NCBI GenBank assembly: GCA_964423645.1
Contig: CAYRFE010000010.1
Span: forward strand, 21,264 to 85,263
From: an uncultured bacterium
GTDB lineage: Bacteria; Macinerneyibacteriota; Macinerneyibacteria; Macinerneyibacteriales; CAYRFE01
Direction of reading: 5' to 3'
DNA length: 64,000 nucleotides
Shown here: piece after piece, positions 10,200 through 57,209 of the stretch
Numbering within the stretch: position 1 is the stretch's first letter
How the letters are laid out: every line of letters begins with the position of its first letter
Notes under the pieces: model-generated
Told to the model about the DNA's origin: nothing
Seen by the model: only the letters and a program-made list of their open reading frames with translations
Database searches by the model: none
Made by a program: the position numbers and the translations under genes

Positions 10200-10212
10200 T
10201 TATAGTCATTTA

Positions 10213-32965: not shown

Positions 32966-35524
32966 TCATTCGATACTCTCAATCACCAATTCTTGTATCC
33001 ACATCGGCATTTTCCCTTTTAGCTTTTTTAACTTGTCGGTTTTGGTTTCGACAGTTTCTCCTTCTTGCGGATATACCTGTTCGCGCCATGTTTCGTCAGT
33101 CAGTAATTCATTATGCATAAACTCATAATAACTGTATACATATCCCGCTCCGATTCGCTTTCCGCCATAAGGATCATTGAGCGCGACATATAGTTTCAAC
33201 GGTTTTCCTATCGCATTGAGTTGATAGGTATCTATTTTTGCTTCAGGATTTATCCACTTTGCAATATCGGTTACAAGCGCCATTCGCGGATCGTCAGTTC
33301 GTATACCAAGCTGCGCTGTTCCAATCAAATCAATCGTTTCCTGTAATGTTGATTTAACCTGTATAATTTTCTCCATTTCATTTACCAATGTATTGATGTA
33401 TTCATTTTCTTCAGCCGAAATTGGTTGCTGAAGAGCCTGTTTTTCTGCAATTATAGTGAGTGTATCAATGACTTTCGAATATCGTTCAAGCCCCACTTGT
33501 AGTTTCGCATCGAGCACTCCCACAATAGGAAACATTTCGTTGTAGCGGTTTAACAATATACGCATTCTGTAAAAAAATGGTAGATTAGGTTCAACATAAT
33601 TAATAACAGGATTTTTATATACATGAAATCCCATAGAACTGGCCAATTGTAAAGGGCGTCTGTATAACACGGTATCATGCATTCGTTGAGTCCACGCACT
33701 AAGCCCTGTCATGAGTGATTTTTTCTCCCAATTCTTACTCTGAGTGAAGTAAAAATCCGGACTGCTTCCAAATTCATACAACGTCGTTATGATGCCTAAA
33801 TAATTCATGTGAATATTCGATTGCCACTCGGATTCTGAATACCGACTACTAAGCGAGGTAAGTTGTGTATAATTACTCTCAAGCTGTGAAAAGGTTTTGA
33901 AATCCTTTTGGATCAACTCGCGACCAAAAGTATTCCCAAATACCGCAGACGTATCATACCCGTGCGGAATACGACGTTCATCGTGAGATTCTTCAAAAAC
34001 TGCGAGTTTTTCCAGTGCATATAAATCAAGATTATAGGTTTGCGGCACTATTTCAAAGAACTCTGCTCGCGAAATACCATCAGAAGAGTAATTACTTTTC
34101 AAGGATTCAATAAAGGCTGCTCTGACTTTGGCATCAAAGATAATATCTCTTCTGTTATCAATATTTTGAAGTAACTCATATGAATAAGCATTACTGTCTC
34201 CGAAAAAATTACGCATTGTAGCAATATACACACTGTATGTCTCCATCAAGTCGGTATTTCGCGAAAGAATCTCATAGAAAAGCACAAATAATGCTGCATC
34301 ATTAGGATACTTGTGTATATCCATCTCAAATCTTAAAGAACTTAACCAGGTAAATACTCGCCAATATTTTTGCAATTGTTCTGTTTCCCGATAATGTATA
34401 CGTGGAGAAAACCGCATGTACGCGATTTCTTTATCGATAATATCAGAGCTTTCAACCCCGGATTCACGTTTAATTTTTTGCAGTTCATTCCGGGCGTTTG
34501 TACTCATTGATTCTTCTTTCACTTGTTCACCGGATAACACAGCAGCAACAGTGAAAACATCATATAACGTATTAAAATAACGTTCATAAGCGGTATAATT
34601 CTTATTTTTTGAATAACTTTGTAAATCGTGATACATTCCACTTACAAATGAAAATAGAAGAGGGGCGAGTATTTTTCGCTCAACATCTATCTGTATCTTA
34701 TAATTCAAAGTACGGAATGTATGCATCAGCCAATCGGTCGTTACAAATATCGACACGGTGCTCCCTTTAGGCTCTACAATATCATAAAGACTTTTATATG
34801 CTTGAATCATATCATCATTATCTTTATATACCTCAAAATTTTCATCCACAATAGCAAATTTGTCACGAATGAGCCGTTGCTGCACGTCGTCAGGAATTCT
34901 TTTAAAACCAACATACGGCAAGAATGCTTTCGGACGATTTTTGTTTTTTGTATAATATTTATCCAATCCGGACTCATCCATCTTCAAAAACGTTACTTTT
35001 TCAGAGTTATACTTACTATTTGATTTAATTATGGTTTTTTTTACATCTACTATTTGATGTTTACCAATACTATTCAATGCCTTAACAATACGTTGAAGCT
35101 TTTCAGGCGAAACATAAGTCATCTCATCAATTAAATCTGTATTACTACCTTTTTTTTCATCCGAGCAAATAGTAGTCCATTGACTTTGAAGAGAATCAAA
35201 CATAGTTTCTGACATATTCGGATGTTTGTTGACTAATTTCTGGAGCCAAAATTTCGCCTGAATGTAATCTTTGTATTCTGCTTGATAAATATGGGAGAGC
35301 ATGCTCATTGCATTATAATAACCATAGGACATTTCAGCAATCTTTTTATAAATTTCAATTGCTTTATCAAATTCTTTATTATTGTAATAAATATATGCGA
35401 CTTGCTCTAAAGCGTCCTTATCCCCCTCATGCGCTTTTTTCTGTAAATCTGCAGGGATATCAATAGCACCGCATAGCGACTTCACAACACACACAAAAAA
35501 TATTATTAAAAGCACACGTTTCAT
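32966..35524 (-). CDS. Large secreted protein (852 aa): N-terminal Sel1/TPR-like region plus conserved C-terminal domain of unknown function
   Basis: Signal peptide; collinear paralog of 35634-38258; the C-terminal 84 aa are identical. Confidence 0.8.
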   Translation of the reverse strand: MKRVLLIIFFVCVVKSLCGAIDIPADLQKKAHEGDKDALEQVAYIYYNNKEFDKAIEIYKKIAEMSYGYYNAMSMLSHIYQAEYKDYIQAKFWLQKLVNKHPNMSETMFDSLQSQWTTICSDEKKGSNTDLIDEMTYVSPEKLQRIVKALNSIGKHQIVDVKKTIIKSNSKYNSEKVTFLKMDESGLDKYYTKNKNRPKAFLPYVGFKRIPDDVQQRLIRDKFAIVDENFEVYKDNDDMIQAYKSLYDIVEPKGSTVSIFVTTDWLMHTFRTLNYKIQIDVERKILAPLLFSFVSGMYHDLQSYSKNKNYTAYERYFNTLYDVFTVAAVLSGEQVKEESMSTNARNELQKIKRESGVESSDIIDKEIAYMRFSPRIHYRETEQLQKYWRVFTWLSSLRFEMDIHKYPNDAALFVLFYEILSRNTDLMETYSVYIATMRNFFGDSNAYSYELLQNIDNRRDIIFDAKVRAAFIESLKSNYSSDGISRAEFFEIVPQTYNLDLYALEKLAVFEESHDERRIPHGYDTSAVFGNTFGRELIQKDFKTFSQLESNYTQLTSLSSRYSESEWQSNIHMNYLGIITTLYEFGSSPDFYFTQSKNWEKKSLMTGLSAWTQRMHDTVLYRRPLQLASSMGFHVYKNPVINYVEPNLPFFYRMRILLNRYNEMFPIVGVLDAKLQVGLERYSKVIDTLTIIAEKQALQQPISAEENEYINTLVNEMEKIIQVKSTLQETIDLIGTAQLGIRTDDPRMALVTDIAKWINPEAKIDTYQLNAIGKPLKLYVALNDPYGGKRIGAGYVYSYYEFMHNELLTDETWREQVYPQEGETVETKTDKLKKLKGKMPMWIQELVIESIE
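33042..33295. repeat. 254-bp block identical to 35731-35984 (3' ends of the tandem paralogs)
   Basis: Base-by-base identical, against roughly 50-60% identity across the rest of the genes. Confidence 0.85.
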
Positions 35525-35633: not shown

Positions 35634-38258
35634 CTATTGCGGCCAAATAGGCATTTTCTCTTTTCCTTCAATCACCAATTCTTGCACCCACATCGGCATT
35701 TTCCCTTTTAGTTGTTTTGACTTGTCGGTCTTGGTTTCGACAGTTTCTCCTTCTTGCGGATATACCTGTTCGCGCCATGTTTCGTCAGTCAGTAATTCAT
35801 TATGCATAAACTCATAATAACTGTATACATATCCCGCTCCGATTCGCTTTCCGCCATAAGGATCATTGAGCGCGACATATAGTTTCAACGGTTTTCCTAT
35901 CGCATTGAGTTGATAGGTATCTATTTTTGCTTCAGGATTTATCCACTTTGCAATATCGGTTACAAGCGCCATTCGCGGATCGTCGGTGCGTATAGCCAAC
36001 TTTTCGGTGGCATATAGATCAATAACTTCCTGAAGAGAAGACTTTGCTTCAACAATTTGTTCCATTTCATACACCAACGAATTTATATACTCATTTTCTT
36101 CAGAGCTTATAGGTTGATTCAATGCCTCTTTATCTACAATCACTGATAAAATATCAATGACAGCCACATAGCGATTTAAGGCTTCCCGAAGCTTCTCATC
36201 GACGATGTCATGGGTGGATATAAAATCGGTATAACTTGCTAGAATTTGCTTCATGCGGTAAAAAAACATCAGATTTGGCTCTACATAATTAATAATAGGA
36301 TGCTTTGTTAATTCAAATGCTTGTCCCCAAGCTGTTGCAAAAGGTTCTCTGTACAAAACGGAATCATGCATACGCTGTGTCCATGCGCTTAAACCGGTCA
36401 TTAATGCTTTTTTCTCCCAATTCTTACTCCGGGTGAAATAAAAATTATCGTTGCTACCGAACGAATACAACTCCTTAAGCAACGAAAGATAGCGCATATG
36501 CAAATTCGATTGCCACTCGACTTCCGAATATCGACCGGCAAGTGTTGTTACTTTTGTATATTCGCCTTCAAGTAATGAAAAGTCCTTAAAGTCTTTTTGA
36601 ATCAATTCATTGCCAAAGGCATTGCCGAATATTGCGGCAGTATCATACCCGTGAGAAATACGATATTCCCGGCGAGATTCTTCCTTAACGCCAAATCGTT
36701 CGATCGCATACAGATCGATATTGTTGGTTTGAGGTAGTATTTCAAAGTACTCTGCAGCAGGCAACAACGGAGCATTTGCGCTTTTGGGCAATGCAGCAAT
36801 AAAATCAGCACGCGTATTCGCATCCGAAATGATGGCGTTCAAATCGGTGATTTTTTCAAGCGTTTGAAAAGAATATGCATCGCTGTTGCCGAAAAACAGC
36901 TGCACTGTTTTACAATACGCCGTGTACAGTTCTGTTGATTCCTTATTGCGGGACAGCACGGTATACAGCAATGCAAATTGCTGTATATCATCCGGATATT
37001 TATTCATATCAATGCTAAACCGTAAGCTGCTCAACCATGTAAAAACACGCCAATATGTGCTCAGTTGCTCTGTTTCTCTATAATGGATTCGCGGGATAAA
37101 TCGTGTATAATCTATTATTTTTCCCGTTACATAGGATTGACGATAGCTTTCTTTTCCGTCCCGAATGAGCGCGAGCTCTTTCTTCGCGTTTTGCGACAAA
37201 TTCTTTTCTGCCGAAGCATCTCCGCTCAATACTGCGGCAATCGAAAAGATGTCATACAGCACATTTGTATGGTCTTTAAACTGCAATCCCTCTTCCGTCG
37301 TGCGATACTCATCGATCTCCTTATACATTTTTCCCGTAAAAGAGATGAGCAAAGGAGCCAATGCTTTGCGCTCTACATCAACTTGAATCTTATAGTTTAT
37401 TGTTCGAAATGTATGCATCAGCCAATCGGTTGTCACAAATATTGACACAATACTCCCTTTAGGATCCCAACGTGGACATAAAGTTTTATACGCTTGAATC
37501 ATATCATCTTTTTTTTCAAACATATCAATGTCTTCATCAACAATAGCGAATCTGTCACGAATGAGACGTTGTTGCACATCATCAGGGATACGCTCAAGCC
37601 CGACATACGGTAAGAATACTTTAGGATGATTTTTATTGTTCTTATAATAGTCCTTCACCTGTGAGTCATCAATCTTCGCAAATACGACTTTTTCATTGTT
37701 TAACTTTTTATTCGGTTTATACACGGGTTGTTTAAGCGGATAAATCCGGGTTTCCTTTGTGTCATTCAATTCTGCACTCAGATGACGAATTTGCTCCGGA
37801 GTAACACTTGTGAGCGCGTTGATTATCTCGGTAGTGTTTATCCCTTTTTCATCTTTACGTATATCATTCCAAATTCCTGAGATTTCCTCATAAATAAAAT
37901 CCGGCAAGTTATTAGGATGTTTATTTACTAGTTTTTGGAGCCAATATTTAGCCTTAATGTAATTTTTGTATTCTATATGATTAATACGAGCAAGCATGAG
38001 CATAGCCATAAAAGAACCGTCCTGTAAGTCTGCGACCTTCTCATATACTTTAACAGCCTTATCGATTTCTTTGTTATTATAATATAGGTGTCCTATTTGT
38101 ATTAACGCTTGCCGATCCCCTTCATTTGCTTTTTTCTGCAATTCTGCAGGGATATCAACAGCGCTGCAAAACAGGTTTAAACACATGTAACAAAAAACCA
38201 TCATTATACAAACACTGCATTTCATACCCTCATCCTCCACTTTGATATCTATACTCAA
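35634..38258 (-). CDS. Large secreted protein (874 aa), tandem paralog of 32966-35524
   Basis: Shared blocks (RIPDDVQQRLIRD, VTTDWLMHTFR, IHYRETEQL, WRVFTWLSSLRF, identical C-terminus). Confidence 0.8.
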   Translation of the reverse strand: MSIDIKVEDEGMKCSVCIMMVFCYMCLNLFCSAVDIPAELQKKANEGDRQALIQIGHLYYNNKEIDKAVKVYEKVADLQDGSFMAMLMLARINHIEYKNYIKAKYWLQKLVNKHPNNLPDFIYEEISGIWNDIRKDEKGINTTEIINALTSVTPEQIRHLSAELNDTKETRIYPLKQPVYKPNKKLNNEKVVFAKIDDSQVKDYYKNNKNHPKVFLPYVGLERIPDDVQQRLIRDRFAIVDEDIDMFEKKDDMIQAYKTLCPRWDPKGSIVSIFVTTDWLMHTFRTINYKIQVDVERKALAPLLISFTGKMYKEIDEYRTTEEGLQFKDHTNVLYDIFSIAAVLSGDASAEKNLSQNAKKELALIRDGKESYRQSYVTGKIIDYTRFIPRIHYRETEQLSTYWRVFTWLSSLRFSIDMNKYPDDIQQFALLYTVLSRNKESTELYTAYCKTVQLFFGNSDAYSFQTLEKITDLNAIISDANTRADFIAALPKSANAPLLPAAEYFEILPQTNNIDLYAIERFGVKEESRREYRISHGYDTAAIFGNAFGNELIQKDFKDFSLLEGEYTKVTTLAGRYSEVEWQSNLHMRYLSLLKELYSFGSNDNFYFTRSKNWEKKALMTGLSAWTQRMHDSVLYREPFATAWGQAFELTKHPIINYVEPNLMFFYRMKQILASYTDFISTHDIVDEKLREALNRYVAVIDILSVIVDKEALNQPISSEENEYINSLVYEMEQIVEAKSSLQEVIDLYATEKLAIRTDDPRMALVTDIAKWINPEAKIDTYQLNAIGKPLKLYVALNDPYGGKRIGAGYVYSYYEFMHNELLTDETWREQVYPQEGETVETKTDKSKQLKGKMPMWVQELVIEGKEKMPIWPQ

Positions 38259-39289: not shown

Positions 39290-39315
39290 TCCGCTTTAAA
39301 GACAGCAATACGATA

Positions 39316-39457
39316 CCTTCGCAAAATTCATCATTTCAAAAATTTCTTTATTTTCTTAAAAGGGGTGGGGGGACAAAGTCCCCACTATATAACAAGTTAA
39401 ACCCCTCCCTATTTTCATGGGAGGGGTTTGGGGTGGGCACAATTCGAGACCTTTGCA
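39316..39457 (+). repeat. Repeat family A copy 5 (first of a tandem pair)
   Basis: Hairpin 1 GGGGACAAAGTCCCC at 39369-39383; hairpin 2 CCCCTCCCtattttcatGGGAGGGG at 39402-39426. Confidence 0.8.
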
Positions 39458-39610
39458 AAATTCATCATTTCCAAAATTTCTTTATTTTCTTAAAAGGGGT
39501 GTGGGGACGAAGTCCCCACTATATAACAATTTAAGCCCCTCCCGATTTTTACGGGAGGGGTTTGGGGTGGGCACAATTCATAAAAATAATAGTATTTTTG
39601 CAAAGCTCTC
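39458..39610 (+). repeat. Repeat family A copy 6 (second tandem unit, closest to a consensus)
   Basis: Hairpin 1 GGGGACGAAGTCCCC at 39504-39518; hairpin 2 CCCCTCCCgatttttaCGGGAGGGG at 39537-39561; tail ttcataaaaataatagtatttttgcaaagctctc. Confidence 0.8.
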
Positions 39611-39616: not shown

Positions 39617-40174
39617 TTATTTCAAAAGGTGCGTAAATTCATTTACTTTCACATAAAACTGTTCAAACAAGGTAATATACGGCGTTACATCACCGTGCGA
39701 TCGAAAAGCATCACGCAACGAAGTAAAATACCACAGTTGTTCATTATACCCTCTTTTGAAACGACTCCAGACTTCATCGCCTAAGCGCGCATGTTCATCG
39801 ATTAACGAGGATATATTATCAAGTTTATCGGCACATTCGACCACTCGGACAGTAAGTGATTGTGTCGATATTTTATCAATAGTGTGTCGCTTCCGCGCTT
39901 CCCATGAAAGTGACTTATCACATTCCGAACACTGCCTCACGATATCTGCAATCTCATTTCCGAATTCAACACCCAGTTGTTCATAAGTTAGATCAGTATC
40001 TTCAAGTGTATCATGCAACAAACCGGCAGCAACAATAATATCTCCTGCTCCCGCTCGAGTTAATCGCATGGCAACGCTGACCGGATGGACCAAATACGGC
40101 ACATCCATACCTTTACGACGTTGTCCGTCGTGCGCCATGGCGGCAAAAAATAGGGCTTTTTCGACAATTGTCAT
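39617..40174 (-). CDS. Small HD-domain alarmone ((p)ppGpp) hydrolase-like protein (SAH/Mesh1-type)
   Basis: 185 aa; HD motif context LVHPVSVAMRL...AAGLLHDTLEDT resembles the RelA/SpoT hydrolase domain. Confidence 0.7.
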   Translation of the reverse strand: MTIVEKALFFAAMAHDGQRRKGMDVPYLVHPVSVAMRLTRAGAGDIIVAAGLLHDTLEDTDLTYEQLGVEFGNEIADIVRQCSECDKSLSWEARKRHTIDKISTQSLTVRVVECADKLDNISSLIDEHARLGDEVWSRFKRGYNEQLWYFTSLRDAFRSHGDVTPYITLFEQFYVKVNEFTHLLK

Positions 40175-40185
40175 CTATTCAACAC

Positions 40186-41118
40186 TCATTTATCAATGAT
40201 AACTAAATTATTCATACGTGAAGATTCATAAATCGATTCTTCCAGAAGTTCCAATATATCGTCAATCGTTTTCATTTTCCGCACATACACCAAACCTTTG
40301 TCAAAACGAGCGGTAATTTCTTTGTCATGTAAAAACTTGCTCATTTCTTTTTCTATTCTATTGATAACGTCGATGATGGTCACCTCTTCAGGATTTTCCA
40401 AAATGACCATTAAACCGGTTCCTCCATGTAATGATATCGTATCAATGGCGCGAATATGTTTCTTTATTGTTTTGGCTAATCCTGCAACAGCAAGATCCAT
40501 CGTTGCCGACCCGTAACGTTTTTTCAATTCGATAAACTCATGATAGCGAGTATAAAAAACTGCAAAACATTGCTTGTGGCGACGTAACCGCTCAAGCACT
40601 TCCTGTAATTTGATATAGAAATAACTGGCACTGTATGCACCCGTTTCCTCATCATATACTGCCATATTATGTACCATCTCATCAAGGCTCATCGTTTTTA
40701 AAATAAATGCGGCAAGCATACTGATATTCTCGAAGAGCGTAAGGTCATCATCATGGAATTCACGTTCAGATGCCATTATTGAGAGACCAACAGTGACGTT
40801 TTTAACGGTCAATGGAAACAGATATACCGAACCGGGATTATTTTCCAACGGGTATTCGCTTCCTGCTCGCACACCTTCATGCGATTCAAAAGCTTTCGCG
40901 ATGCATTCATCAGTCAATGTCAACGTATTACTATTGATAAATGCCGCACTTACTCCACGTGCCATTTTTACACGGAAACGATCATGACTGAACACATATA
41001 ACACACATTGCTTTAAATGCAACTCTTTCATAAGCGCAGTCATCAGATTTGATAAAATTTCTTCATACGTTGACGCATGCGACACGTTTTTTAAAAATGC
41101 ATTATGTTTTTTTTGCAT
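40186..41118 (-). CDS. GAF-like domain plus degenerate GGDEF-like domain protein (predicted catalytically inactive)
   Basis: RYHEF where GG(D/E)EF is expected; start reassigned to Met 29 (41118), which has the RBS aaggagagggcATG. Confidence 0.6.
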   Translation of the reverse strand: MQKKHNAFLKNVSHASTYEEILSNLMTALMKELHLKQCVLYVFSHDRFRVKMARGVSAAFINSNTLTLTDECIAKAFESHEGVRAGSEYPLENNPGSVYLFPLTVKNVTVGLSIMASEREFHDDDLTLFENISMLAAFILKTMSLDEMVHNMAVYDEETGAYSASYFYIKLQEVLERLRRHKQCFAVFYTRYHEFIELKKRYGSATMDLAVAGLAKTIKKHIRAIDTISLHGGTGLMVILENPEEVTIIDVINRIEKEMSKFLHDKEITARFDKGLVYVRKMKTIDDILELLEESIYESSRMNNLVIIDK

Positions 41119-42787
41119 CGCCCTCTCCTTTATTTTGCTGCGTATGCAGCATCGTTTTCTTTTCGACATAAGAGCTCTGCACCACATAATCGGATCCCTC
41201 AAATTCTTTCACGACCGTCGATACATCATTCACCGCTGCAACAATTCGATCGAGCATCGCACGCTCTGAGGGGAATTTTCGCATCAATAATTCGATTGTA
41301 GCCAAGATCGTGGTAAGTGGCGAATTAATGCGATGATTAAGTGTTACCGAGAGATCATGCACAAGATGAAGTTTTTCTTTGACCACTTCTGATTCATCAG
41401 CACATAAGCGTAGATAGATCATGCCGGTATATGATAAAAAATCAACAATTTCTGCTAATTCTTCCTGAGAAACCATTCGCTTACTAAAGACGTTATCACC
41501 ATAAATGAATCCGCTGATTGTTCCGGGACCGGGTATAGGAAAAACATAATATGTGCTTGACCCGACTCTTTTTGTAAAACTTTGATGGAGTAAATTATCT
41601 TTTTCGGTATAAAACTCTTTATCGCCGAATGATTCCGGCATCGTAATAATCTGTTGAGAAAAAATATCAGGTTTGCAATCGGCAAGATACTCACGTAAAT
41701 GATACCCGTGAGTATTTTTATCAAAAAAGAATACTCTGTCAAAATGAAAATATGTAGTGAATGTCGTAAAAAAAGAAGTAAATGCTCGTGACGGATCACC
41801 ATATACTAAATCTTTTAAAAATTCATGCAAGAATTCCTGTTTATATAGACGTTTGTTAAGTGTGACGATGACATCTCGCGAGAATTCATGCTTTTCAGCG
41901 GCAAAAAATTTATGGATATTTTCAAAATCGTTGTAATATGATGTGTCAAGAGAATATGAATCCAAAAAATTCTTGATCTTCGGTAATACGCCGCCTATCA
42001 CCTCATCAAGAAGTGAAAGCGACATGAGCAATTCTTTCTCAGTGAAAATAAAAAAGTAGGGTAATTCTTCAATAATATGATTATGCAATACAGCCCATAC
42101 AAATTCTTCGCAAAAGGTCATTATCTTTCGATGCGAGGGATCTTCCGGAGAATGGAGATTACTACACGCTGCATCCACAAATGTTTGCGGTAAATGCCAT
42201 TTTTCAAGAATATATTTACTCAACGCAATGTGTGAAAAACCCAGTGACCGTATTTGTGACTCGAGAAACGTTTGAAGTGTTTCCGTATCTTTCTTGAGTA
42301 TATCGGAAAGTAGCTCATACTGAGTTTCATATAAAAACAAATACCCAATATGCCGTAACAACATTTGTGAAAACAGTATTCCTTGTATAGGAATGCCTTT
42401 TATCTGAGCAAGACGCTGGGTAAGTAACGCAGAGACAAACGAAAAAAGGAAAAAACGTTTTGTTTCTTCTTCCGGGACATTGGCAAATGATCGTGTGTGT
42501 TCATAAAATAAGACACATAACAACACCTCGCGTAATTTATCCAGCCCGAGTAGTGACACCGCATGTTGTATATCGGTAATTTTATGCGGTAAATAGTAAT
42601 AACCTGAATTTATTAAATTGAATACTTTTGCAGAGAGCATCGCATTCTGCTCCAACTCACTGCTTATCATTTTTATATCGGTTTCATCCGACATCAGTAT
42701 TTGAATGATTCGAATAACGATCGTCGATGGTAAATGATGATGATTCAGTAGAGTATCTATTGCCGAATAATCTATGCCTTGCGTCAT
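41102..42787 (-). CDS. HDOD-domain protein with a C-terminal HisKA-like dimerisation/phospho-acceptor segment and no ATPase domain
   Basis: N-terminal HDOD features; C-terminal [25 protein letters not shown] matches an H-box; the protein ends about 60 aa later. Confidence 0.65.
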
Positions 42788-43431
42788 ATCTTTAAGTACT
42801 TTCTTACCTTAACCTGCAAAAATAAAGGAAGAAGCGAGAGGGATCGGCTCACGACATTTTTATATCCCCTGATCGAATTATCGATCATATATACTAAGAG
42901 CACGTATTTTTCACTTACCTCCGCGGCGATCCAAAAATCTTTCACCAAAAACATATTGGATAAATCCGTTAAATACGTGATTAAGAAATCATGCGCGATC
43001 GCTCTGTTTCCTGAATTGGGATCCTTTTTAGCCGCATGTATCAGTGCTTTCAGTGCCATTTCTCGACGCTCGAACAAAACATACATTGCTTGGCGACGAA
43101 CCAGATAATTTCCGGAATACATCACCAGATTCACAATTTCTTCTGCAGGCATACGGCGAACAAGCGGATCAATAATATGAAAAAAGAAATATTTCTTTTT
43201 CGGTTTGGGCGTTATTTGCTTCACGGCCATATCCGGTTTCACTCGATAATCTATCGGCGTTCTGCAAACACTTGAATACGCATCTTGAATGTGTTTGAAT
43301 TTTTCAATATCTCCACCGGGATTATCGGGATGATACCGTTTTACAAGCGCACGATAGGCTCGTTTAATCTCTTCTTTGTGCGCATTTTTTGAAACACCCA
43401 GCACTTCATACCATACTTCGACATCGTTCAT
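42784..43431 (-). CDS. J-domain co-chaperone (DnaJ-like N-terminal domain only)
   Basis: [30 protein letters not shown] with an HPD motif; no Gly/Phe, Zn-finger or C-terminal DnaJ domains; ATGA overlap with the Hsp70 gene. Confidence 0.8.
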
Positions 43432-45143
43432 TCGTTGTGGCCCTCCGTAATAATACGTGCGGTTTCTATAAGTTCACGCAACACGGTGATATCTCTGTCT
43501 GCAATATGCCGATCAATATCTTGTATTAAATGCACTACATCTTCATGCTCGCTGTCGTGAGCTAATGTGGCATACTCATTTAACGCATCGATCATTGTGT
43601 GAGCAGTCGCAATAATTGACTCTTCTTTCTCATGAATCATCTCATCTTGTCGTTCGCTCTCTTCAATAATCGCTTGAACTTCTTCATCGGAAAGCGAACT
43701 CATGTTTTGAATTTCAAGTTCTTTCTTTACACCTGAGTGCATGTCCGCTGCTGATACGGACAATACACCGTTTTGATCCATACTGAACGTCACTTCAATA
43801 TCGGGTTCGCCCTTTTTCATGGCTTGGATATCCGTCAGCTCAAAACTCCCTAAAAAATGATTGTCTTTTACATTCGATGATTCACCTTGGAAAACCTTCA
43901 CTTCAACAATCTTCTGATAATCCGAAACAGTTGTAAAGTTCTGCATACGCGAGACCGGTATCGGCGTATTTCGTGTAATTAACGGCGCAAAAACACCTTT
44001 ATCTATTTCAATCCCTAAAGAAAAAGGAGTCACATCAACCAAAATCATATTCTCGCCAATTTCCCGCGTCACCACACCCTGTATAATCCCCGCCTGAATT
44101 GCCGCACCCATGGCAACACATTCATCGGGATTAATATTTTTATACGGTTTAGTATCGGAAAGGTCCTGCAGTTTTTTTTCTACGATAGGAATTCGCGTTG
44201 ATCCGCCAACCAATATCATCTTTGATAATTCACTGACTTTTACCTGTGCATCATCCAAAACACGATAAAACGGTTCATCAAGTTGATCAATATAATCATG
44301 TATCAAATCTTCGAATTGTGCACGAGTAAGCCGCATTTCTAAATGCCGAGGTCCAAGTTCATCGGCAGTAATAAACGGAATACTTATCGCAGTATGCTTC
44401 GCCTCAGACAATTCGACCTTCGCCTTCACCGATTGTTCATAAATACGCTGTAATGCCATACGATCGGTTGAAAGATCGATACCGGTTTCATTTAAAAAAG
44501 CCGACAATATATAATCTGCAATTCGAGTGTCAAAATCATCTCCCCCAAGCTTATTGTTTCCCGACGATGCAAGAACTTCAAAAACATTGTCTCCTACATC
44601 AAGGAGAGACACGTCATACGTCCCACCACCCAAATCCATGATGATTATACGCTCTCCGTCGGTTTGATTATTCGCTCCGTACGCCAGCGCTGCTGCAGTC
44701 GGTTCGTTAATGATACGTAATACGTTCAAACCTGCAATTTTAGCTGCCTGCATTGTCGCCGATCGTTGATTGTCATTAAAATATGCGGGGACTGTTATAA
44801 CGGCATCAGTGACACTGTCACCTAAAAAAACCTCTGCATCATCTTTCATTTTTCGCAATATAATTCCCGAAACTTCTTCGGGGGAATACTCAATGGAGTC
44901 AATTTTTATTTTTTCTTTTGTTCCCATCAAACGCTTTACGGATACTATTGTCCGTTCAGGACTTATAACCGCTTGATTTTTCGCACTTTGACCTACCAGA
45001 ATTTCCTTGTCTTTTGTCACTGCAACACAGGAAGGAGTAAGTCGCTCTCCTCTGTTATTGGGAATAATTTCCGGTTTGCCATCTTTTAAATATGCCATTA
45101 CCGAATTTGTGGTTCCCAGATCAATACCTATAGTAATACCCAT
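43428..45143 (-). CDS. Hsp70-family ATPase, short HscC-like form
   Basis: [20 protein letters not shown], Hsp70 substrate-binding beta domain; 571 aa with a truncated C-terminal lid. Confidence 0.88.
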
Positions 45144-45157
45144 AGCTGCTCCTTAAT

Positions 45158-45988
45158 TCAATCAAATAATAATTCACCATTTTTATGTGCGCTATCGGCT
45201 TCAGCAGTAATTGTCTCGATATCTGCGCCGGTCAATCCCAATGTACGTGCAGATTCCAGTTGCGTAAAATCGTGTGCTGTTTGATATAAACCAAATCCCA
45301 AATGATATGCCAACGCATCAGCGACATTGATATACACAGCCAAAGGGCTTTCGGCAGCTGCCGTCATATCATGATGAAAGCGAATACCATCTATAAGTGC
45401 ATCGCTGAATTTCCATTTTATTGCAATCTCCCGACCAATATCTGCATGAGTATATCCAAGAATCCGCAGTTCAGGATCCACAAAAGATTTTTTCATATCA
45501 TATACATCGGTAAGCACCAATTCATATTCCTTTTGAAACATTTGATACATAAATGTCTTTCCAAGATCATGTAACAATCCCGCGACAAAGGCTTCTTCAG
45601 GCACAGGATATTTTCGTATTTTCGCAATAGACCTCGCAACAAATGCAACAAATTGTGCGTGTTCCCATAGTTTTTTTGACACAAGAGACTTTGAATCAAA
45701 ATACATGTTTTTCGTTGAATATGCAACGACAAGATTGCGAACGGTGGATAAACCCAAAACAACCACCGCATCCCGCACGGTTGTGATTCGTCGTATTGTT
45801 GAGTAATATGCCGAGTTGGCCGTTTTCAAAAGTGCAGACGTCAACGCTTCATCCCGATATACGGCATCTTGAATCTCGCGTGCAGTAACATTTTCGTCAT
45901 GCAACAAATCGATGACTTGTCGAGCAACATGCGGCATGACAGCCAATTCTTGCAATCTATCCAGTACACCTTCCGGGACGTTATTCAT
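45158..45988 (-). CDS. HDOD-domain signalling protein
   Basis: 276 aa with the conserved HDLGK region. Confidence 0.8.
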   Translation of the reverse strand: MNNVPEGVLDRLQELAVMPHVARQVIDLLHDENVTAREIQDAVYRDEALTSALLKTANSAYYSTIRRITTVRDAVVVLGLSTVRNLVVAYSTKNMYFDSKSLVSKKLWEHAQFVAFVARSIAKIRKYPVPEEAFVAGLLHDLGKTFMYQMFQKEYELVLTDVYDMKKSFVDPELRILGYTHADIGREIAIKWKFSDALIDGIRFHHDMTAAAESPLAVYINVADALAYHLGFGLYQTAHDFTQLESARTLGLTGADIETITAEADSAHKNGELLFD

Positions 45989-46674
45989 ATCTCTCCTTCA
46001 ATTTTCATGATCGGTATAACAATTGACTGAACACATCCGGATGCTTCATGTTCTATACGATACACCCCCGCATGTTTTTCCGCCGTTCGTTTACAAAATG
46101 CCAACCCTAGATATATTGCACCTGTATAGTCGTGTGAAAAAGGATCGGGTACAATTTCAGGCACACGATACGAATCATCAACTTCACTGATCACTCGCAC
46201 CGTAAACATTTCGTCTTTAGCGGTCGTATACACACGAATAGTTCCTTTTTGTGTAATTGCGCAGGCATAGGTGATCATTTCAACAAGAGCTGATACCAAC
46301 TGATCTTTATCACAGCGGAGCATGGTTTCATGTGCAGTATCCTCGATAGTAATTTTTGATAACGGATGTATTGTCTGCCAACAATCTCTCAGCGCAACAA
46401 TATCTTCAACAATCGAACGCACGTCACAATCGTCCCACGTGTATTCGCGCCCTGTTTTTTCACGTACCGAACGAATATACGCACTCATTTCTTCAACGAC
46501 ATGGGCCATTTTCTTTTTCATTTCATCATTACCCTCGATGAATGTGGCATAATTGATCAAAAGAAAAAGGTAATTATTCAATTTGTGGGTCATTGCACTG
46601 ACTACTTCTCCGACAGATGTATTCCGTTGAAGATTAATAAATCGTTCGACCGATGATTGCTCATAAGTATTCAC
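45985..46674 (-). CDS. Minimal cytoplasmic histidine-kinase-like protein (DHp + CA core, no sensor or TM)
   Basis: H-box THKLNN; HATPase-like C-terminus with weak G-boxes; 229 aa; 5 nt downstream of cheA. Confidence 0.6.
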   Translation of the reverse strand: MNTYEQSSVERFINLQRNTSVGEVVSAMTHKLNNYLFLLINYATFIEGNDEMKKKMAHVVEEMSAYIRSVREKTGREYTWDDCDVRSIVEDIVALRDCWQTIHPLSKITIEDTAHETMLRCDKDQLVSALVEMITYACAITQKGTIRVYTTAKDEMFTVRVISEVDDSYRVPEIVPDPFSHDYTGAIYLGLAFCKRTAEKHAGVYRIEHEASGCVQSIVIPIMKIEGEI

Positions 46675-46679: not shown

Positions 46680-48830
46680 TTACACTCCTGCGATTTCTTT
46701 TTTCACCATTCCTGCCATACCACTTACATCAATAATAAGAGAAACGCGCCCGTCACCTAATGTGCTCGCGCCTGAGATTCCGGGAATATTACCTAAATAT
46801 TCACTTAATGATTTAATGACTATTTCTTCTCTTCCTAAAAGTTCATCCACGAGCAAACCTAATTTTCGTCCGCCGACGGATACGATTACTACATAATACT
46901 CTTTTTTATTAACATCATAATTGGGGACATCAAATACTTCCGATAAACGTAACAATGGAAGAACCACGTCGCGCAAATTGAGCACTTCTTTATTATTAAT
47001 GGTTCGTATTTCGGAGAAAGTAACCTTGCTTGTTTCAATAACTGATGTTATCGGCACCGAGTATATTTCATCAGATACCGATACCAATAATGCCGTAACG
47101 ATCGCAAGTGTCAGCGGTAAGCGAACTTTCATTTTTGTCCCTTTACCAAGTTCGGTTGTAATCTCAATCATACCGTTCAGTTTTTGCACATTCGAACGTA
47201 CCACATCCATACCCACACCGCGTCCCGATGTATTGCTGACCAACTCAACCGTTGAAAAACCGGGGAGGAATATAATATTCAAAATTTCATTTTCACTCAT
47301 ATTTCTCAACGATGTTTCGTCAACAATACCTTTTTCTATCGCTTTGCGTGCAATTTTTTTGGTATCAATACCGCGTCCGTCATCTTCAACCTCAATGACA
47401 ATATTGTCACCTTCCTGATATGCCGAAAGATAGATCGTTCCGACCGCAGGCTTTCCCATTCTTTTACGCTCTTCCGGTGTCTCAATCCCGTGGTCAACGG
47501 AGTTACGAAGAATATGAACTAAAGGATCCCCTATATACTCCACGATCGATTTATCCAATTCTGTCTCTTCCCCAGAAATGATCAAATCAATTTCTTTGTT
47601 TTTTTCTCGTGCAAGAGTGCGAATCATACGCGGATATTTGTTGAACACTTTTCCAATAGGCAAAAGACGAGTTTTCATAACCGCCATCTGCAATTCAGAT
47701 GTCACAAAATTAATATTCGCAGTATTGTCGTTCAATTGTTCAATAAATTCATTATCCTTTGTCGACGATAATATACCCGAGATTCGCAAAAGTCTGTTCT
47801 TTGCCTGCACCAACTCTCCCACAAGATTCATCAGTTGATCCAGTCGCTTCACATCGACACGTATCGTCTGTTCAACGCCTCGCTCTTTCACTAAGGCACT
47901 CGCATTTTTCTGCTCAACGGGAATATCATCTTTGTTCTTATCAGACGAGGTTTGCTCATGCTTGTGCGCTTCACCGGTAAGTTGAGCCAATTTGATCATG
48001 ATCGATTTTGTCTCGACTTGCGGTTGTTTTCCCTCTTTTAGATCTTTGTTGATTAATTGCAATTTATCGATTCCCTCAAGCATACCGTCAACAAGTTCTC
48101 GCTCGAGCGTAAATACTCCATCTCGAATTTTATTAAGAATATCTTCAATTTTATGTGCAACTTCAGCCATTTGATTCACACCAATAAAACCTGCAGATCC
48201 CTTCACCGTATGTATTTTACGATAAAAATCATTCAAAATTTCTTTGTTATCCTTATGTTTCTCCCAATTCACCAACTCTTGACTCAAAAAATCAAGATTT
48301 TCTTCCGCCTCAATGACAAATTCTTGCAACACCTCGCGAAGCACTTCGTCTTTAAAATATCCGGGTTGTGCATCATCCTCGGCATCCTCATCGATATGTT
48401 CGTCTTTGATTTTCACATCGGGTACTTGGACGACACTGTCTTCACTCGCCTTCTCAAGTCGTTGGATCAATTGTTGTATATCCACAGATTCCGGGTCACC
48501 TTTGCTGATTTGTTCAAGTAATTGCTTCATATTATCCATTACGACAAATAACATATCAACAATTTCAGGTGTTGCTTCCATTTCATTTTTACGCAATTTA
48601 TTGAGCACATCCTCGGCATGATGCGTGAGTTTGGTTAAGACATCAAATCCTAAAAATGATGCCGAACCCTTAATAGTATGCGCCGAACGAAATATACTAT
48701 TAAGTAAATCAAGATTTTGCGTGTCCTTCTCAAGCTCAAGAAGGTCTTTTTCCATTTGATCTAACAGTTCATTCGATTCTATAATAAAATCCTGAATGAT
48801 ATTATCCATGTCATCTGAACGGGGTGTCAT
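46680..48830 (-). CDS. cheA: Chemotaxis histidine kinase CheA with two tandem HPt (P1) domains
   Basis: HTIKGSASFLGF and HTVKGSAGFIGV phospho-acceptor motifs; dimerisation, HATPase (DDGRGID, GRGVGMDVV) and CheW-like domains. Confidence 0.92.
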   Translation of the reverse strand: MTPRSDDMDNIIQDFIIESNELLDQMEKDLLELEKDTQNLDLLNSIFRSAHTIKGSASFLGFDVLTKLTHHAEDVLNKLRKNEMEATPEIVDMLFVVMDNMKQLLEQISKGDPESVDIQQLIQRLEKASEDSVVQVPDVKIKDEHIDEDAEDDAQPGYFKDEVLREVLQEFVIEAEENLDFLSQELVNWEKHKDNKEILNDFYRKIHTVKGSAGFIGVNQMAEVAHKIEDILNKIRDGVFTLERELVDGMLEGIDKLQLINKDLKEGKQPQVETKSIMIKLAQLTGEAHKHEQTSSDKNKDDIPVEQKNASALVKERGVEQTIRVDVKRLDQLMNLVGELVQAKNRLLRISGILSSTKDNEFIEQLNDNTANINFVTSELQMAVMKTRLLPIGKVFNKYPRMIRTLAREKNKEIDLIISGEETELDKSIVEYIGDPLVHILRNSVDHGIETPEERKRMGKPAVGTIYLSAYQEGDNIVIEVEDDGRGIDTKKIARKAIEKGIVDETSLRNMSENEILNIIFLPGFSTVELVSNTSGRGVGMDVVRSNVQKLNGMIEITTELGKGTKMKVRLPLTLAIVTALLVSVSDEIYSVPITSVIETSKVTFSEIRTINNKEVLNLRDVVLPLLRLSEVFDVPNYDVNKKEYYVVIVSVGGRKLGLLVDELLGREEIVIKSLSEYLGNIPGISGASTLGDGRVSLIIDVSGMAGMVKKEIAGV

Positions 48831-48843: not shown

Positions 48844-49425
48844 TTATTTTAGCGCAAAAGCTAAATCTTTCGACAACAACGGGACCGCTTTCTTATGCAT
48901 TTGCAATCGAATCCTTTGAGTCACTTTTTTTGCTCCTAAACTTCCATAAGAAAGCACAGGATACGCGAATATCCGTTCGTTTGATTCTACATGCTCATCA
49001 TGCGTCGTATAGACGGTCATATAGATAACATAATGAGCAACAAGATCACCCTTCTCCGCGACAAAAGGAATCGACGTTTTTTTGTCTTTTACAATATCAG
49101 TTTCACGCAGAGATACGGTTATCACGCGGTCATACCCTTTTCGCCCGTATGATGCCATTTCATGCACAATTCTTGCAGCATCAAATGCACCTCTATCATA
49201 GTGAGTATACTCCATCTGATGCGCTGAATCAAGTGAATTTTCAATGGTCATCTGCCACAGCTCATTCGTATAAGGATACCGATCCCAACCGTCGCCTAGT
49301 ATAATCATCACTCGTTCAGCTTTGAGCAACCCAATCATTGAAAATACCCCAATACACAACATGATACATTTTCGCACCGGATTTAACAGATCCGATACGT
49401 GTGATCTTTGACTCCGTCTTTTCAT
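48844..49425 (-). CDS. Hypothetical secreted or membrane-anchored protein
   Basis: N-terminal hydrophobic segment; tightly packed in the operon. Confidence 0.5.
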   Translation of the reverse strand: MKRRSQRSHVSDLLNPVRKCIMLCIGVFSMIGLLKAERVMIILGDGWDRYPYTNELWQMTIENSLDSAHQMEYTHYDRGAFDAARIVHEMASYGRKGYDRVITVSLRETDIVKDKKTSIPFVAEKGDLVAHYVIYMTVYTTHDEHVESNERIFAYPVLSYGSLGAKKVTQRIRLQMHKKAVPLLSKDLAFALK

Positions 49426-49730
49426 GAGTGCCCCCGCGCTTTCTTGTTTAAACGGTATAAAAACGCATATATTTCTGCGACCACGACAAAGGCATTCTCC
49501 GGTATTTCATGCTCAACTTCGATCGTATCCAGCAGTGAAACAAGATCTTTATCCTCAACAAGGGGAATATGATGCTCTTTGGCAATAGAGATGATCGCTT
49601 CCGCGATATGACCCCAGCCTTTTGCTGACACTTTCGGCGCATGTGCAGTATCCGCGTCATACGTAAGAGCGACTGCCTTTTTGATCAAATCACGCCCTTT
49701 CATACTACGACGTCTATGCCTTCTTCGCAC
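49422..49730 (-). CDS. FlhB C-terminal-domain-only protein (EscU/YscU/FlhB family, YlqH-like)
   Basis: VALTYDADTAHAPKVSAKGWGHIAEAIISIAKEHHIPLVED...VVAEIYAFLYRL parallels the B. subtilis YlqH / FlhB cytoplasmic domain. Confidence 0.8.
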   Translation of the reverse strand: MRRRHRRRSMKGRDLIKKAVALTYDADTAHAPKVSAKGWGHIAEAIISIAKEHHIPLVEDKDLVSLLDTIEVEHEIPENAFVVVAEIYAFLYRLNKKARGHS

Positions 49731-50551
49731 TGAAACGCGAGCATTAAAATAGGATCATGCAATATTCCCGAATGCTTCACCGTTAATGATGCAACCGAAA
49801 TACCTTTTTCATGCAATGCAGTACGCAATTCTCGGAATGCCCCCTGAATGATACGTGCTGAATCTTCCGTCGCAGTATACATATGAATACCTATTGTTGA
49901 GTGCCATTGACGAACGACGGCAAGAATCGTTCCAAGAGATGATAACTCAGCCATTATACGGTACTCTTCCATTCCGGTCGAGTTTTTCGGTGTATACGAA
50001 AAATAGCCGTCTCGCAATAATTCATTCTCCACATAGGGAAATGCCATAAAAAACATCCCTTTTTCACCATATTCTTGTGAAATGATCTTATCAAATTGTG
50101 CATGACGCAATATATCATCTGCTTCTTTTTCATTCGTAAGCAACGGGGAAACCGGTATTTTTGATAATTCCGATTGTTCCTGTAAAAATTCTTTGGTTAA
50201 TTCGGTATCCGGTGATTTAATCACAATCCCGGGCAACCGTATCTGAAGAAAGGTCTTGAAAAAAGCGGCGAGCTTGGGTTCTGCTGACTCGAAAAGCTTG
50301 GGTAAAACCTTTTCCATGTTCACCAGTTCCAAAACCGGCAGTGGCGAAAGTGATTTTACTCGTACAAATATACCTTCCTTATCCTGTAATATCATTTCAG
50401 ACGCCGCAGTTAAAACCGAGCCTTGTATTTTAATCGAAAAAAGATTATTCCCGAGCTGCTCCTGTACCACGGCATGGTATAAGCCGCCTTTAATAAAAAC
50501 AGGAAGCGGTTTCCCCTGCTGCAGGTGTAGTTGGATCGTATCAACGCGCAT
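49700..50551 (-). CDS. Hypothetical protein in the flagellar operon
   Basis: 283 aa; no motif recognised; co-directional and overlaps its neighbours. Confidence 0.5.
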   Translation of the reverse strand: MRVDTIQLHLQQGKPLPVFIKGGLYHAVVQEQLGNNLFSIKIQGSVLTAASEMILQDKEGIFVRVKSLSPLPVLELVNMEKVLPKLFESAEPKLAAFFKTFLQIRLPGIVIKSPDTELTKEFLQEQSELSKIPVSPLLTNEKEADDILRHAQFDKIISQEYGEKGMFFMAFPYVENELLRDGYFSYTPKNSTGMEEYRIMAELSSLGTILAVVRQWHSTIGIHMYTATEDSARIIQGAFRELRTALHEKGISVASLTVKHSGILHDPILMLAFQCEEGIDVVV

Positions 50552-51224
50552 CTCTTGCCTTCAACGCCTTAAGTTTTATAATAAAATCGACCTCACCCGG
50601 TGAAATATTAAAACGACGACTGAGAGTGATCTTATCTGTTCCGTTCACAAACAAACCATACACCGCGTCATAGTCCAAGGTTTGGGAGTCTGTGCTTTTT
50701 TTCTGCATCTCGATACAAGTATTGATGTTTTTTACACCATTACCGGCTTTTAACACCAAGTCACCGATGCCTGCAGCTTCAGGTGCTTTTTCTAAATACT
50801 TCCCGACCTCATCTATTAAATCTTTCATGACAATCTGTAATTTTTGTATCTCCTCACGACTGCCTTTTCGAATCCTACGTTCTCGCGAGAGAAAAAGTAC
50901 GATTATAATAATGATCAATATTAAAAACACACCATAAAATATCATCTCACGTTCACGTATACGAAGCGGAGAGTTTTTAATGGAATCAAGCTCCTGACGC
51001 TCTTCAAGTAACCGCTGTTGTTCAATTTCAAGCTCTCTTAACAATCGCTCATATCGAACTTTTTCCGTCTCTTCCGTTTTTTGAGCAAAGACGGGTGCAC
51101 TTGCAGTTGTGAAAAAAAGAATGAAAAGACTAACCCTTAATATCAATTTCGCTCCCCTTTGAGTCGGTGTACTCAACATGTTTGTTTTTTGTATATACCG
51201 CGCAAAAATATTCTTTCTTCCCAT
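50541..51224 (-). CDS. Membrane protein with signal peptide, coiled coil and TM helix (likely start Met 51179)
   Basis: MLSTPTQRGAKLILRVSLFILFFTTASAPVFAQ; EKVRYERLLRELEIEQQRLLEERQEL; IFYGVFLILIIIIIVLFL. Confidence 0.5.
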   Translation of the reverse strand: MGRKNIFARYIQKTNMLSTPTQRGAKLILRVSLFILFFTTASAPVFAQKTEETEKVRYERLLRELEIEQQRLLEERQELDSIKNSPLRIREREMIFYGVFLILIIIIIVLFLSRERRIRKGSREEIQKLQIVMKDLIDEVGKYLEKAPEAAGIGDLVLKAGNGVKNINTCIEMQKKSTDSQTLDYDAVYGLFVNGTDKITLSRRFNISPGEVDFIIKLKALKARDAR

Positions 51225-51462
51225 TTTTTTCCCGCCTCCGCCTTCTATGTCGCCTACTTTCGTCGCGATCCTCCCCGTGTAATTCGACTATATCTTCCTG
51301 TTGTACTTCGTGAACTTTTTCTATTTTTTCCCGCTGCTCTGTTTTATCGGCATCCCGCACATGTCCTTGTTGCGCGAACGCAGCTTCTTTATTGACACTC
51401 TGCACCTTTTCAACCGAATCACTCCCAGTGATATTAATGCGCACATCATTAATTTTCATCAT
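51130..51462 (-). CDS. Candidate FlgM-like anti-sigma-28 factor (110 aa) immediately downstream of fliA
   Basis: Start codon abuts the fliA stop; begins MMKINDV like Firmicute FlgM (MKIN...); hydrophilic and probably disordered; the C-terminus overlaps the next ORF by about 50 nt. Confidence 0.4.
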   Translation of the reverse strand: MMKINDVRINITGSDSVEKVQSVNKEAAFAQQGHVRDADKTEQREKIEKVHEVQQEDIVELHGEDRDESRRHRRRRREKNGKKEYFCAVYTKNKHVEYTDSKGSEIDIKG

Positions 51463-52209: not shown

Positions 52210-52483
52210 TCAGGTTGTCTCCTTTATCATTCTCACTGTTCCGTCTTTTGGTCGAATGTAATACATCGCGCAACCGTTTATGTTCCATTTCATTCACAAT
52301 GACGGTCTCCAATATTTTTCCAAGTGCAGAAAAAAAGAAAAAAATGACCGCGGCTCCGGCAGCGATATACCAAAAATCCGCTTTTTTACCGTACAATAAA
52401 AATGCCGCGGCAAATGCCGCAATACCGGCAACCACAACCACTCCATGATGCAATATGACGAGAGAATCATCGTGGGTCATCAC
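52196..52483 (-). CDS. Small two-TM membrane protein
   Basis: 95 aa with two hydrophobic helices; overlaps both neighbours. Confidence 0.45.
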   Translation of the reverse strand: MMTHDDSLVILHHGVVVVAGIAAFAAAFLLYGKKADFWYIAAGAAVIFFFFSALGKILETVIVNEMEHKRLRDVLHSTKRRNSENDKGDNLNVEG

Positions 52484-53945: not shown

Positions 53946-53947
53946 AC

Positions 53948-57174: not shown

Positions 57175-57180
57175 ACCGCC

Positions 57181-57209
57181 ATTATACAATTTTTACGTTT
57201 AAAAGTCAA
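57181..57209 (-). promoter_or_regulatory. Perfect sigma70 consensus promoter TTGACT-N17-TATAAT abutting the flhA start
   Basis: Minus strand reads GTTGACTtttaaacgtaaaaattgTATAATggcggtATG; only 6 nt separate the -10 from the ATG. Confidence 0.6.

Follow-up and report, generated by a model that had tools for sequence, protein, structure and literature searches.

Directly downstream of cheA in an uncultured bacterium of the Macinerneyibacteriota, we identified a six-gene block encoding a histidine kinase (HK)-like protein, a stand-alone HDOD protein, an Hsp70, its J-domain partner, an HDOD protein that ends in a dimerization and histidine phosphotransfer (DHp) segment, and a GAF-like/GGDEF protein with a degenerate active site. 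The block lies on contig CAYRFE010000010.1 (assembly GCA_964423645.1, positions 21,264 to 85,263 of the forward strand); the whole 64,000-nucleotide stretch is called the window here, and coordinates refer to it. The cassette is composed of known protein families only, in a new combination that is confined to an uncultured clade, and its most interesting lead is the flagellar Hsp70/J pair. Tentatively, and short of calling it probable, we read the block as a cyclic di-GMP (c-di-GMP)- and phosphoryl-sensing adaptor/chaperone module that would tune motility post-translationally.

A first-pass annotation, made from the letters alone, had listed seven open reading frames (ORFs) on the minus strand directly after cheA, and all seven are found there, from 39617 to 46674. 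Together with their surroundings they are as follows.

48844 to 57189, minus strand: flhA, flhF, flhG, YcgR-like PilZ gene, orf95, fliA, orf110, orf227, FliK-like gene, stand-alone FlhB C-domain gene and orf193, as assigned by Pfam.
52480 to 53103, minus strand: the YcgR-like PilZ gene of that series, with PilZNR and PilZ matches.
46680 to 48830, minus strand: cheA, 716 aa, with Pfam matches to Hpt (twice), H-kinase_dim, HATPase_c and CheW.
45985 to 46674, minus strand: HK-like predicted pseudokinase ("mini-HK"), 229 aa, with a DHp containing His30 and a domain resembling the catalytic and ATP-binding (CA) domain.
45158 to 45988, minus strand: stand-alone HDOD protein, 276 aa, with HDOD and HD matches.
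43428 to 45143, minus strand: predicted Hsp70 paralogue, 571 aa, with an HSP70 match.
42784 to 43431, minus strand: J-domain cochaperone, 215 aa, with a DnaJ match, HPD and a predicted HEAT-like C-terminal domain.
41102 to 42787, minus strand: protein with a degenerate HDOD domain, a middle region and a DHp, 561 aa, with HDOD and borderline HisKA matches.
40186 to 41118, minus strand: GAF-like plus degenerate GGDEF protein, 310 aa, with a GGDEF match; an ORF start is also possible at 41202.
39617 to 40174, minus strand: HD protein of the small alarmone hydrolase (SAH) type, 185 aa, with an HD_4 match; last gene of the operon.
39306 to 39573, no strand: intergenic 134-nt tandem duplication with G+C-rich hairpins, between convergent gene ends.

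The seven genes are predicted to be the tail of a single minus-strand operon, flhA-flhF-flhG-pilZ-...-fliA-...-cheA-X, whose 5′ end is flhA, divergent from a LamB/YcsF gene, and whose 3′ end is convergent to a pseudouridine synthase gene. Its upstream part matched FHIPEP, SRP54, ParA/MinD, PilZNR plus PilZ, sigma-70 regions 2, 3 and 4, Flg_hook and Bac_export_2 in Pfam. The genes upstream of cheA abut or overlap, in an order that is the same at the related loci L001, L002 and L004. Five nucleotides separate cheA from the mini-HK gene, and the junctions within the block span −17 to +14 nt. At three of them start and stop codons overlap by 4 nt, and the genes of the 561-aa and the GAF-like/GGDEF proteins overlap by 17 nt. 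A consensus scan of the block detected no terminator-like site above background, no sigma-28-like promoter was found inside the operon, and neither Rfam nor tRNA scans gave a match in the window. Since no break separates the upstream flagellar genes from the block, the cassette makes up the 3′ third of a ~17.5-kb flagellar/chemotaxis operon, and the six genes of the block appear to be translationally coupled. These data support the initial description of an atypical signaling cassette linked to the flagellar and chemotaxis genes, with which it appears to be cotranscribed.

The block is narrowly distributed and well conserved. Among 5.8 billion proteins, the 561-aa protein has just three relatives (80, 79, and 67% identity); the mini-HK has four in the database search, and neither protein has homologues apart from the cassette. 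L001/L002/L003 and L004 share with the window the unchanged order cheA-mini-HK-HDOD-Hsp70-J-HDOD/DHp-degenerate GGDEF, and the same holds from pilZ on, so that the gene order proposed for checking by the first-pass annotation is kept in three related metagenomic lineages. Amino acid identities to these relatives are 51 to 92% (51 to 89% within the six-gene block). Synonymous sites are saturated, and the ratio of nonsynonymous to synonymous substitution rates (dN/dS) is 0.03 to 0.09 where dS can be estimated, including the "dead" proteins. By this measure the six-gene block is under purifying selection, and the preserved order, lengths and overlaps, together with saturated synonymous sites and low dN/dS, indicate that it is a selected unit. 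The lineage is known from metagenomes only (JGI 3300020048, ENA ERZ27262927), with a relative in the "Bin Chicken" metagenome-assembled genome (MAG) GCA_964539615.1; the lineage of the window and its 67% relative co-occur in one sample.

The 571-aa Hsp70 and the 215-aa J protein, annotated as such at the outset, were readily confirmed by HSP70 (E = 5e-186, 620 bits) and DnaJ (E = 2e-15, 56.8 bits) matches. The Hsp70 has intact ATPase motifs (GGSTRIP is seen) and no acidic C-terminal tail. In a rough neighbor-joining tree most DnaK sequences fall elsewhere, and it groups with short Hsp70s whose partners are J-HEAT proteins; it is assigned as a DnaK paralogue from its sequence. The J protein carries YHPD and aligned in hhalign, over residues 1 to 180, with the J-HEAT partners of loci L012, L015, L014 and L011 (98.5% probability, E = 2e-15), all four of which have a HEAT_2 match. 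The window protein is thus predicted to be homologous to the J-HEAT partners beyond the J domain, with a HEAT-like tail.

Pairs of this kind recur next to flagellar genes. In L011, a Spirochaetota MAG, the order is flhB-flhA-flhF-flhG-x-fliA-FapA-x-Hsp70-J, with the pair at 10001-12628. Two related lineages with L/P-ring genes (L012/L013/L117 and L015/L016) have FapA-(motAB)-Hsp70-J-flgF-flgG-flgA-flgH-flgI-flgJ-flgN-flgK-flgL; the pair occupies 9001-11616 in L012 and 9001-11626 in L015, as against 42784-45143 in the window. In L128 (pair at 4994-7413) it lies ~2 kb from fliL-fliM-fliY. The association of Hsp70/J-HEAT with flagellar clusters is therefore recurrent, occurring in at least three other lineages, and is not universal. 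The pair had been taken as an interruption of the cassette, a view that is not supported; of the whole block, the pair alone recurs beside flagellar genes in other lineages. A back-translated KGEPxIEVxF pattern, used to search for this Hsp70 clade, was not clade specific (111 of 120 matches were other Hsp70s, at 41 to 46% identity) and gave just one more informative locus, L128. A 228-aa ORF upstream of the Hsp70 gene in L011 was considered as a mini-HK homologue and is unrelated. Full-text literature searches returned no description of Hsp70/J in flagellar clusters and nothing on HDOD combined with DnaK/Hsp70.

HscC-DjlC is a specialized Hsp70/J pair. The window pair is similar in that a shortened Hsp70 paralogue adjoins a short J protein without Gly/Phe and zinc finger regions, features that imply a narrow client range; it differs by the HEAT-like repeats in the J partner and by its repeated placement in flagellar clusters.

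The mini-HK is predicted to have a class-I HK fold, composed of a DHp and a CA domain. A four-sequence profile aligned end to end with solved HKs and placed His30, within the H-box THKLNN (46573-46590), on the phospho-His (9p6i and FixL-type chains); His30 also aligns with the phospho-His of distant HKs and is invariant in four orthologues. The AlphaFold2 model, with a predicted local distance difference test (pLDDT) score of 68.6 overall and ~85 in the CA domain, retrieved class-I HKs in Foldseek at E ~1e-11. A full HMMER scan of 1.84 billion representatives supplied its best distant relatives, which we aligned with the protein and its three orthologues to inspect the active-site boxes. In all four orthologues the N-box NLxxNA has become E-M-I-T-Y/F-A, with both Asn replaced, including the Mg-ATP ligand; no glycines are left in G1 (DxGxG); G2 has lost its first glycine and is reduced to xxxLGL; and the TTK after the F-box is gone. 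The HATPase_c match (E = 4e-4, 21.1 bits) is below the gathering score of 26.4. The degenerate ATPase core that had been noticed in this protein was correctly recognized, and the mini-HK is best regarded as a pseudokinase whose CA domain should not bind ATP.

Degenerate HKs of this size are known to act in phosphotransfer. ChpT has an HK fold with His33 and a Bergerat-like domain without ATP binding (PMC3433190), and PhyT, a degenerate HK with an HRxxN H-box, was shown to be a phosphotransferase (PMC5898713). Like ChpT, Spo0B and PhyT, the mini-HK is a cytoplasmic protein of ~200 to 230 aa with what appears to be an N-terminal helical hairpin, an acceptor His near residue 30 and a CA-like domain predicted not to bind ATP. 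Its HKLNN, with a basic residue after His and Asn at +4, is comparable to HRxxN of PhyT, as are the lost N, G1 and G2 boxes. On the other hand, it has no known flanking receiver proteins and belongs to a flagellar/chemotaxis operon, whereas the known proteins serve cell cycle, sporulation and stress relays; common descent with ChpT or Spo0B was tested and not detected. RetS and DivL, two pseudokinase regulators, differ in being large and multidomain or membrane associated; apart from CheA, the window encodes no partner kinase.

Both HDOD proteins noted in the first-pass annotation scored above the HDOD gathering score of 22.9, the 276-aa protein with 186.5 bits (E = 5e-55) and the 561-aa protein with 101.5 bits (E = 5.5e-29). 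The 276-aa protein also matches HD (E = 4e-11), scores above the cutoff of HDIG TIGR00277, and has the Geobacter HDOD 3HC1 as its closest structure match (E = 3e-34). 3HC1 is a di-iron HDOD in which five His and one Asp coordinate two iron ions (PMC12075610). The HD dyad is kept (H140-D141, 45566-45571), and the positions WxH, LLHD, H before DIG/EVG, and HHD align with 3hc1, the ligand identities being taken from PMC12075610. The 276-aa protein therefore appears to keep the ligand positions of the 3HC1 di-iron site and may possess a di-metal center.

In the 561-aa protein, by contrast with 3hc1, the HD dyad is replaced by R145-H146 (LLRHIG versus LLHDVG). HisKA is matched at residues 482 to 529 with 23.7 bits in the whole protein and 26.4 bits in the segment alone (gathering score, 26.9); His485 lies there in NHRINSP (41318-41338), and the His with its surrounding box (NHRINSPLT) is invariant in four orthologues. 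Only ~30 residues follow the HisKA segment, so there is no CA domain, and HATPase_c is missing from the three relatives too; the protein thus ends in a DHp with no catalytic domain, as first described. Of the two H-boxes proposed at that stage, this one is a borderline HisKA match, and that of the mini-HK is missed by Pfam, with profile and fold searches aligning its His. Neither H-box varies among orthologues of 51 to 80% identity, while the surrounding sequence does. The middle region of ~270 residues matches no family, and a "GAF" label for it is not justified, as hhalign against the neighboring GAF-like domain found nothing; the AlphaFold2 model (pLDDT 43.5) is poor and gives only a beta/alpha pattern at residues 350 to 460. 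We ruled out a truncated pseudogene, since length, overlap with the next gene and dN/dS (0.06) are conserved.

Motility is influenced by HDOD proteins in Xanthomonas, Campylobacter and Pseudomonas, as exemplified by GsmR, Cj0248, SadB and PFL_0554/5871 (PMC11004494); the mechanism of HDOD proteins is otherwise unsettled (PMC6543031), and SadB is a proteolysis adaptor that needs no ligand (PMC12075610). The window differs from GsmR, Cj0248 and SadB by the operon pairing of HDOD with an Hsp70 system. HDOD domains N-terminal to a DHp are known already from HDOD-input HKs, such as the distant matches P0004 (HDOD-HisKA-HATPase_c-REC) and P0006. Unlike these, the 561-aa protein ends after its DHp, lacks the HD dyad and contains the ~270-residue familyless middle.

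The 310-aa protein has the GAF-like plus GGDEF-like architecture originally assigned to it: GGDEF is matched at E = 4.6e-13, and GAF models stay under threshold (GAF_3, 25.2 bits versus a cutoff of 27). RYHEF (40534-40548), however, was mistaken for its signature. When the protein is aligned to DgcR (6zxm), a cyclase of Leptospira, RYHEF falls on the upstream metal/GTP motif DIDKF (DxDxF), and the true signature position reads GGTGL (40411-40425; GGTSI in L001). The motif DxDxFK..ND..GH is replaced by RYHEF..KK..GS, so that both Asp, the Asn-Asp pair and the His are changed, and the domain is predicted to be catalytically dead. An I-site, RAID (40441-40452), lies five residues upstream of GG and aligns with RKSD of DgcR; RAID or RTID, followed by five residues and GG, is conserved in all three orthologues, and GGT is kept too. 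The intact RxxD I-site gives better support for a c-di-GMP receptor role than RYHEF did; the suggestion that this inactive protein may be such a receptor is thus supported on different grounds, and we consider it a putative c-di-GMP receptor that may bind via RxxD. PopA and PelD are degenerate GGDEF receptors that bind c-di-GMP via an RxxD I-site. The window protein likewise appears to have lost the active-site motifs and kept RxxD five residues upstream of the signature; it differs in that a GAF-like module, in place of the REC or transmembrane parts of those proteins, precedes the GGDEF domain.

The PilZ protein reported upstream is confirmed by PilZNR (E = 1e-17) and PilZ (E = 5.5e-12) matches and by RRQYER (RRxxxR) and DMSAGG (DxSxxG), which identify the PilZN and PilZ domains. 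Another orphan second-messenger sensor, a stand-alone cyclic nucleotide-binding protein of 155 aa (31064-31531), is encoded between peptidase M20 and phosphofructokinase genes.

CheA contains two complete Hpt (P1) domains (His51 and His207), P3, P4 and P5, and no P2. Its P4 is intact (N-box RNSVDHG, G1 DDGRGI, G2 GRGVGMD), the protein is 87 to 92% identical in relatives, and it is predicted to be the sole ATP-using kinase of the operon. The statement that neither cheW nor cheY is encoded nearby can be extended to the whole window: Pfam scans of its ORFs found no CheW-only or Response_reg domain, and tblastn with CheY and Spo0F gave no match in the 64 kb. Two methyl-accepting chemotaxis protein genes are present at 450-4522, despite the lack of a cheW, cheY or receiver gene in the window.

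The last gene of the operon falls outside the conserved six-gene block. The RelA/SpoT-type assignment of the 185-aa protein was upheld at the level of the HD subfamily, by HD_4 (E = 1e-14, 54.9 bits; gathering score 27.2), by TIGR00691 spoT_relA (E = 1.6e-25) and by its best PDB match, Lmo0812 (4yf1, E = 7e-36), followed by the SAHs 7qoe/7qoc, Mesh1 and Rel hydrolase domains. Alignment to Lmo0812, SAHs and Mesh1 shows its HD and ED motifs (LLHDTLEDT) and ADKLDN in place, and it is predicted to be an unremarkable SAH-type RelA/SpoT hydrolase homologue. It resembles the SAHs (Mesh1, Lmo0812-like, RelH/SAH 7qoc/7qoe) in its single HD_4 domain as well as in these motifs and differs solely by its place at the end of a flagellar operon, a place that is not conserved: the gene is present in L004 and absent from L001 and L002, and the 67%-identity relative has no SAH gene within 10 kb of the cassette, with hutH/hutU in its place (L001). 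The SAH gene thus appears to be a lineage-variable add-on, which puts the (p)ppGpp link outside the conserved core and weakens the claim that the cassette connects (p)ppGpp signaling to motility.

Taken together, the signaling proteins of the block appear to lack any complete catalytic site except for the possible di-metal center of the 276-aa HDOD protein, and the ligand or acceptor sites that remain are His30, His485 and an I-site, RxxD, whose spacing is canonical. In the adaptor/chaperone module that we tentatively favor, the dead GGDEF protein would sense c-di-GMP through its I-site, alongside the upstream YcgR-like PilZ brake. Phosphoryl groups would pass from CheA to a CheY-type receiver encoded elsewhere and on to the two ATPase-less DHp proteins, which may accept, pass on or remove them as dimeric histidine phosphotransferases or phosphatases like ChpT, Spo0B and PhyT, or else may act as RetS-like DHp heterodimer partners. 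The HDOD domains would sense metals or ligands or act as adaptors, in the manner of SadB, and the Hsp70/J-HEAT pair, which is also found within flagellar clusters of lineages unrelated to this one, would remodel flagellar, chemotaxis or regulatory clients.

Several observations weigh against this interpretation. With no receiver domain in the window, the phosphoryl route is hypothetical. Pfam DHp models gave no match to the mini-HK N terminus even at E ≤ 10, hhalign of the mini-HK DHp against that of the 561-aa protein detected no similarity, and the residue after the His is basic (K, R) in both DHps, in contrast to the acidic residue of HisKA kinases. The low pLDDT makes the model of the 561-aa protein unreliable and too poor for a fold search. 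Hsp70/J-HEAT pairs also occur off flagellar loci (L008-L010, L079/L036), and the pair of L128 is convergent to the flagellar genes and not cotranscribed with them. Finally, the block is present in only about four metagenomic lineages, so that co-occurrence statistics are thin.

Some of the same observations bear on a chaperone-centered, phosphorylation-independent module, an explanation that we find rather unlikely as it stands. Here, an Hsp70/J-HEAT core would act in flagellar or chemosensory assembly or turnover, the pseudo-enzymes would only bind, and the His residues would be structural relics. That only Hsp70/J-HEAT recurs with flagellar genes elsewhere, that HDOD proteins stand on both sides of the pair in every clade member, and that SadB offers a documented HDOD proteolysis adaptor without need of a ligand all fit this proposal, as do the missing receiver domain and the absence of an acidic residue beside the His in both DHps. 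However, the H-boxes are invariant while their surroundings vary, which suggests selection on the His sites, and retention of the RxxD I-site makes at least a small-molecule input likely; the occurrence of Hsp70/J-HEAT outside flagellar loci also speaks against such a role.

It is more doubtful still that the genes are functionally unrelated, having accreted at the 3′ end of the flagellar operon in one lineage and been inherited together. The SAH gene is indeed exchangeable (hutH/hutU instead in L001), every domain type is individually common, and in so narrow a clade the order may reflect shared ancestry and not selection. Nonetheless, order, 4-nt start/stop overlaps and gene lengths are preserved despite synonymous saturation, the mini-HK and the 561-aa protein never occur apart from the cassette, and gene order varies downstream of the block but not within it. 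A bolder idea seems comparably improbable to us: Hsp70/J-HEAT would be a dedicated, undescribed flagellar/chemotaxis chaperone of several bacterial lineages that this clade has brought under the control of second messengers and phosphoryl groups. The dead GGDEF protein, the two HDOD proteins and the two ATPase-less kinase relics with their His would decide on which motility protein it acts, and a CheA-fed phosphorelay branch would end in a chaperone and not in a transcription factor or the motor switch.

Least likely is the split kinase suggested by the first-pass annotation, in which the 229-aa CA-like domain would bind ATP and phosphorylate His30 and, as a heterodimer, His485: a DHp plus CA protein does adjoin a DHp-only protein, complementary on paper, both His are invariant and part of the G2/F region (DPF, LGL) survives in the mini-HK, yet with the N-box Asn, G1 DxGxG, first G2 glycine and TTK lost in all four orthologues and HATPase_c below the gathering threshold, the mini-HK is unlikely to serve as an ATPase for the DHp-only protein, and autophosphorylation is absent from ChpT and PhyT, which have an HK fold with comparable losses.

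The surroundings of the block yielded further observations. Within the flagellar operon, four ORFs without a Pfam match (193, 227, 110, and 95 aa; 48844-49425, 50541-51462, 52196-52483) are conserved at 44 to 83% identity in related contigs. A 102-aa stand-alone FlhB C-terminal-domain protein adjoins the FliK-like (Flg_hook) protein (49422-50551). Full-length flhB is missing upstream of flhA (55117-57189), where a LamB/YcsF-CT_C_D-CT_A_B (5-oxoprolinase-like) cluster is transcribed divergently; a Spirochaetota MAG encodes an FlhA with 46% identity to the one in the window. Beyond the 3′ end, between the operon and the pseudouridine synthase gene, the two tandem copies of the 134-nt unit are 92% identical, and each contains the hairpins GGGGAC..GTCCCC and CCCCTCCC..GGGAGGGG. 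Four copies of the latter hairpin are present in the window, against 0 expected by chance, and all lie between convergent gene ends, the further sites being 22215-22239 and 63262-63286. The 134-nt repeat has no Rfam match and is probably a bidirectional terminator or an element like the repetitive extragenic palindromes. Two tandem paralogous secreted DUF3160 proteins of 852 and 874 aa are encoded at 32966-35524 and 35634-38258; their C-terminal ~90 residues are nearly identical and the remainder has diverged, a pattern that suggests recent gene conversion.

The organism is uncultured, the cassette is found in a handful of metagenomic lineages and all its parts come from known families. If the adaptor/chaperone interpretation is true, the block would be a compact natural case of signaling run almost wholly by pseudo-enzymes, and it would join c-di-GMP motility control, phosphorelay via degenerate kinases and substrate-specific Hsp70 systems, three subjects that tend to be treated separately. 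The Hsp70/J-HEAT pair of flagellar clusters is a candidate for a cytoplasmic chaperone specific to the flagellum, in addition to the export chaperones already known.

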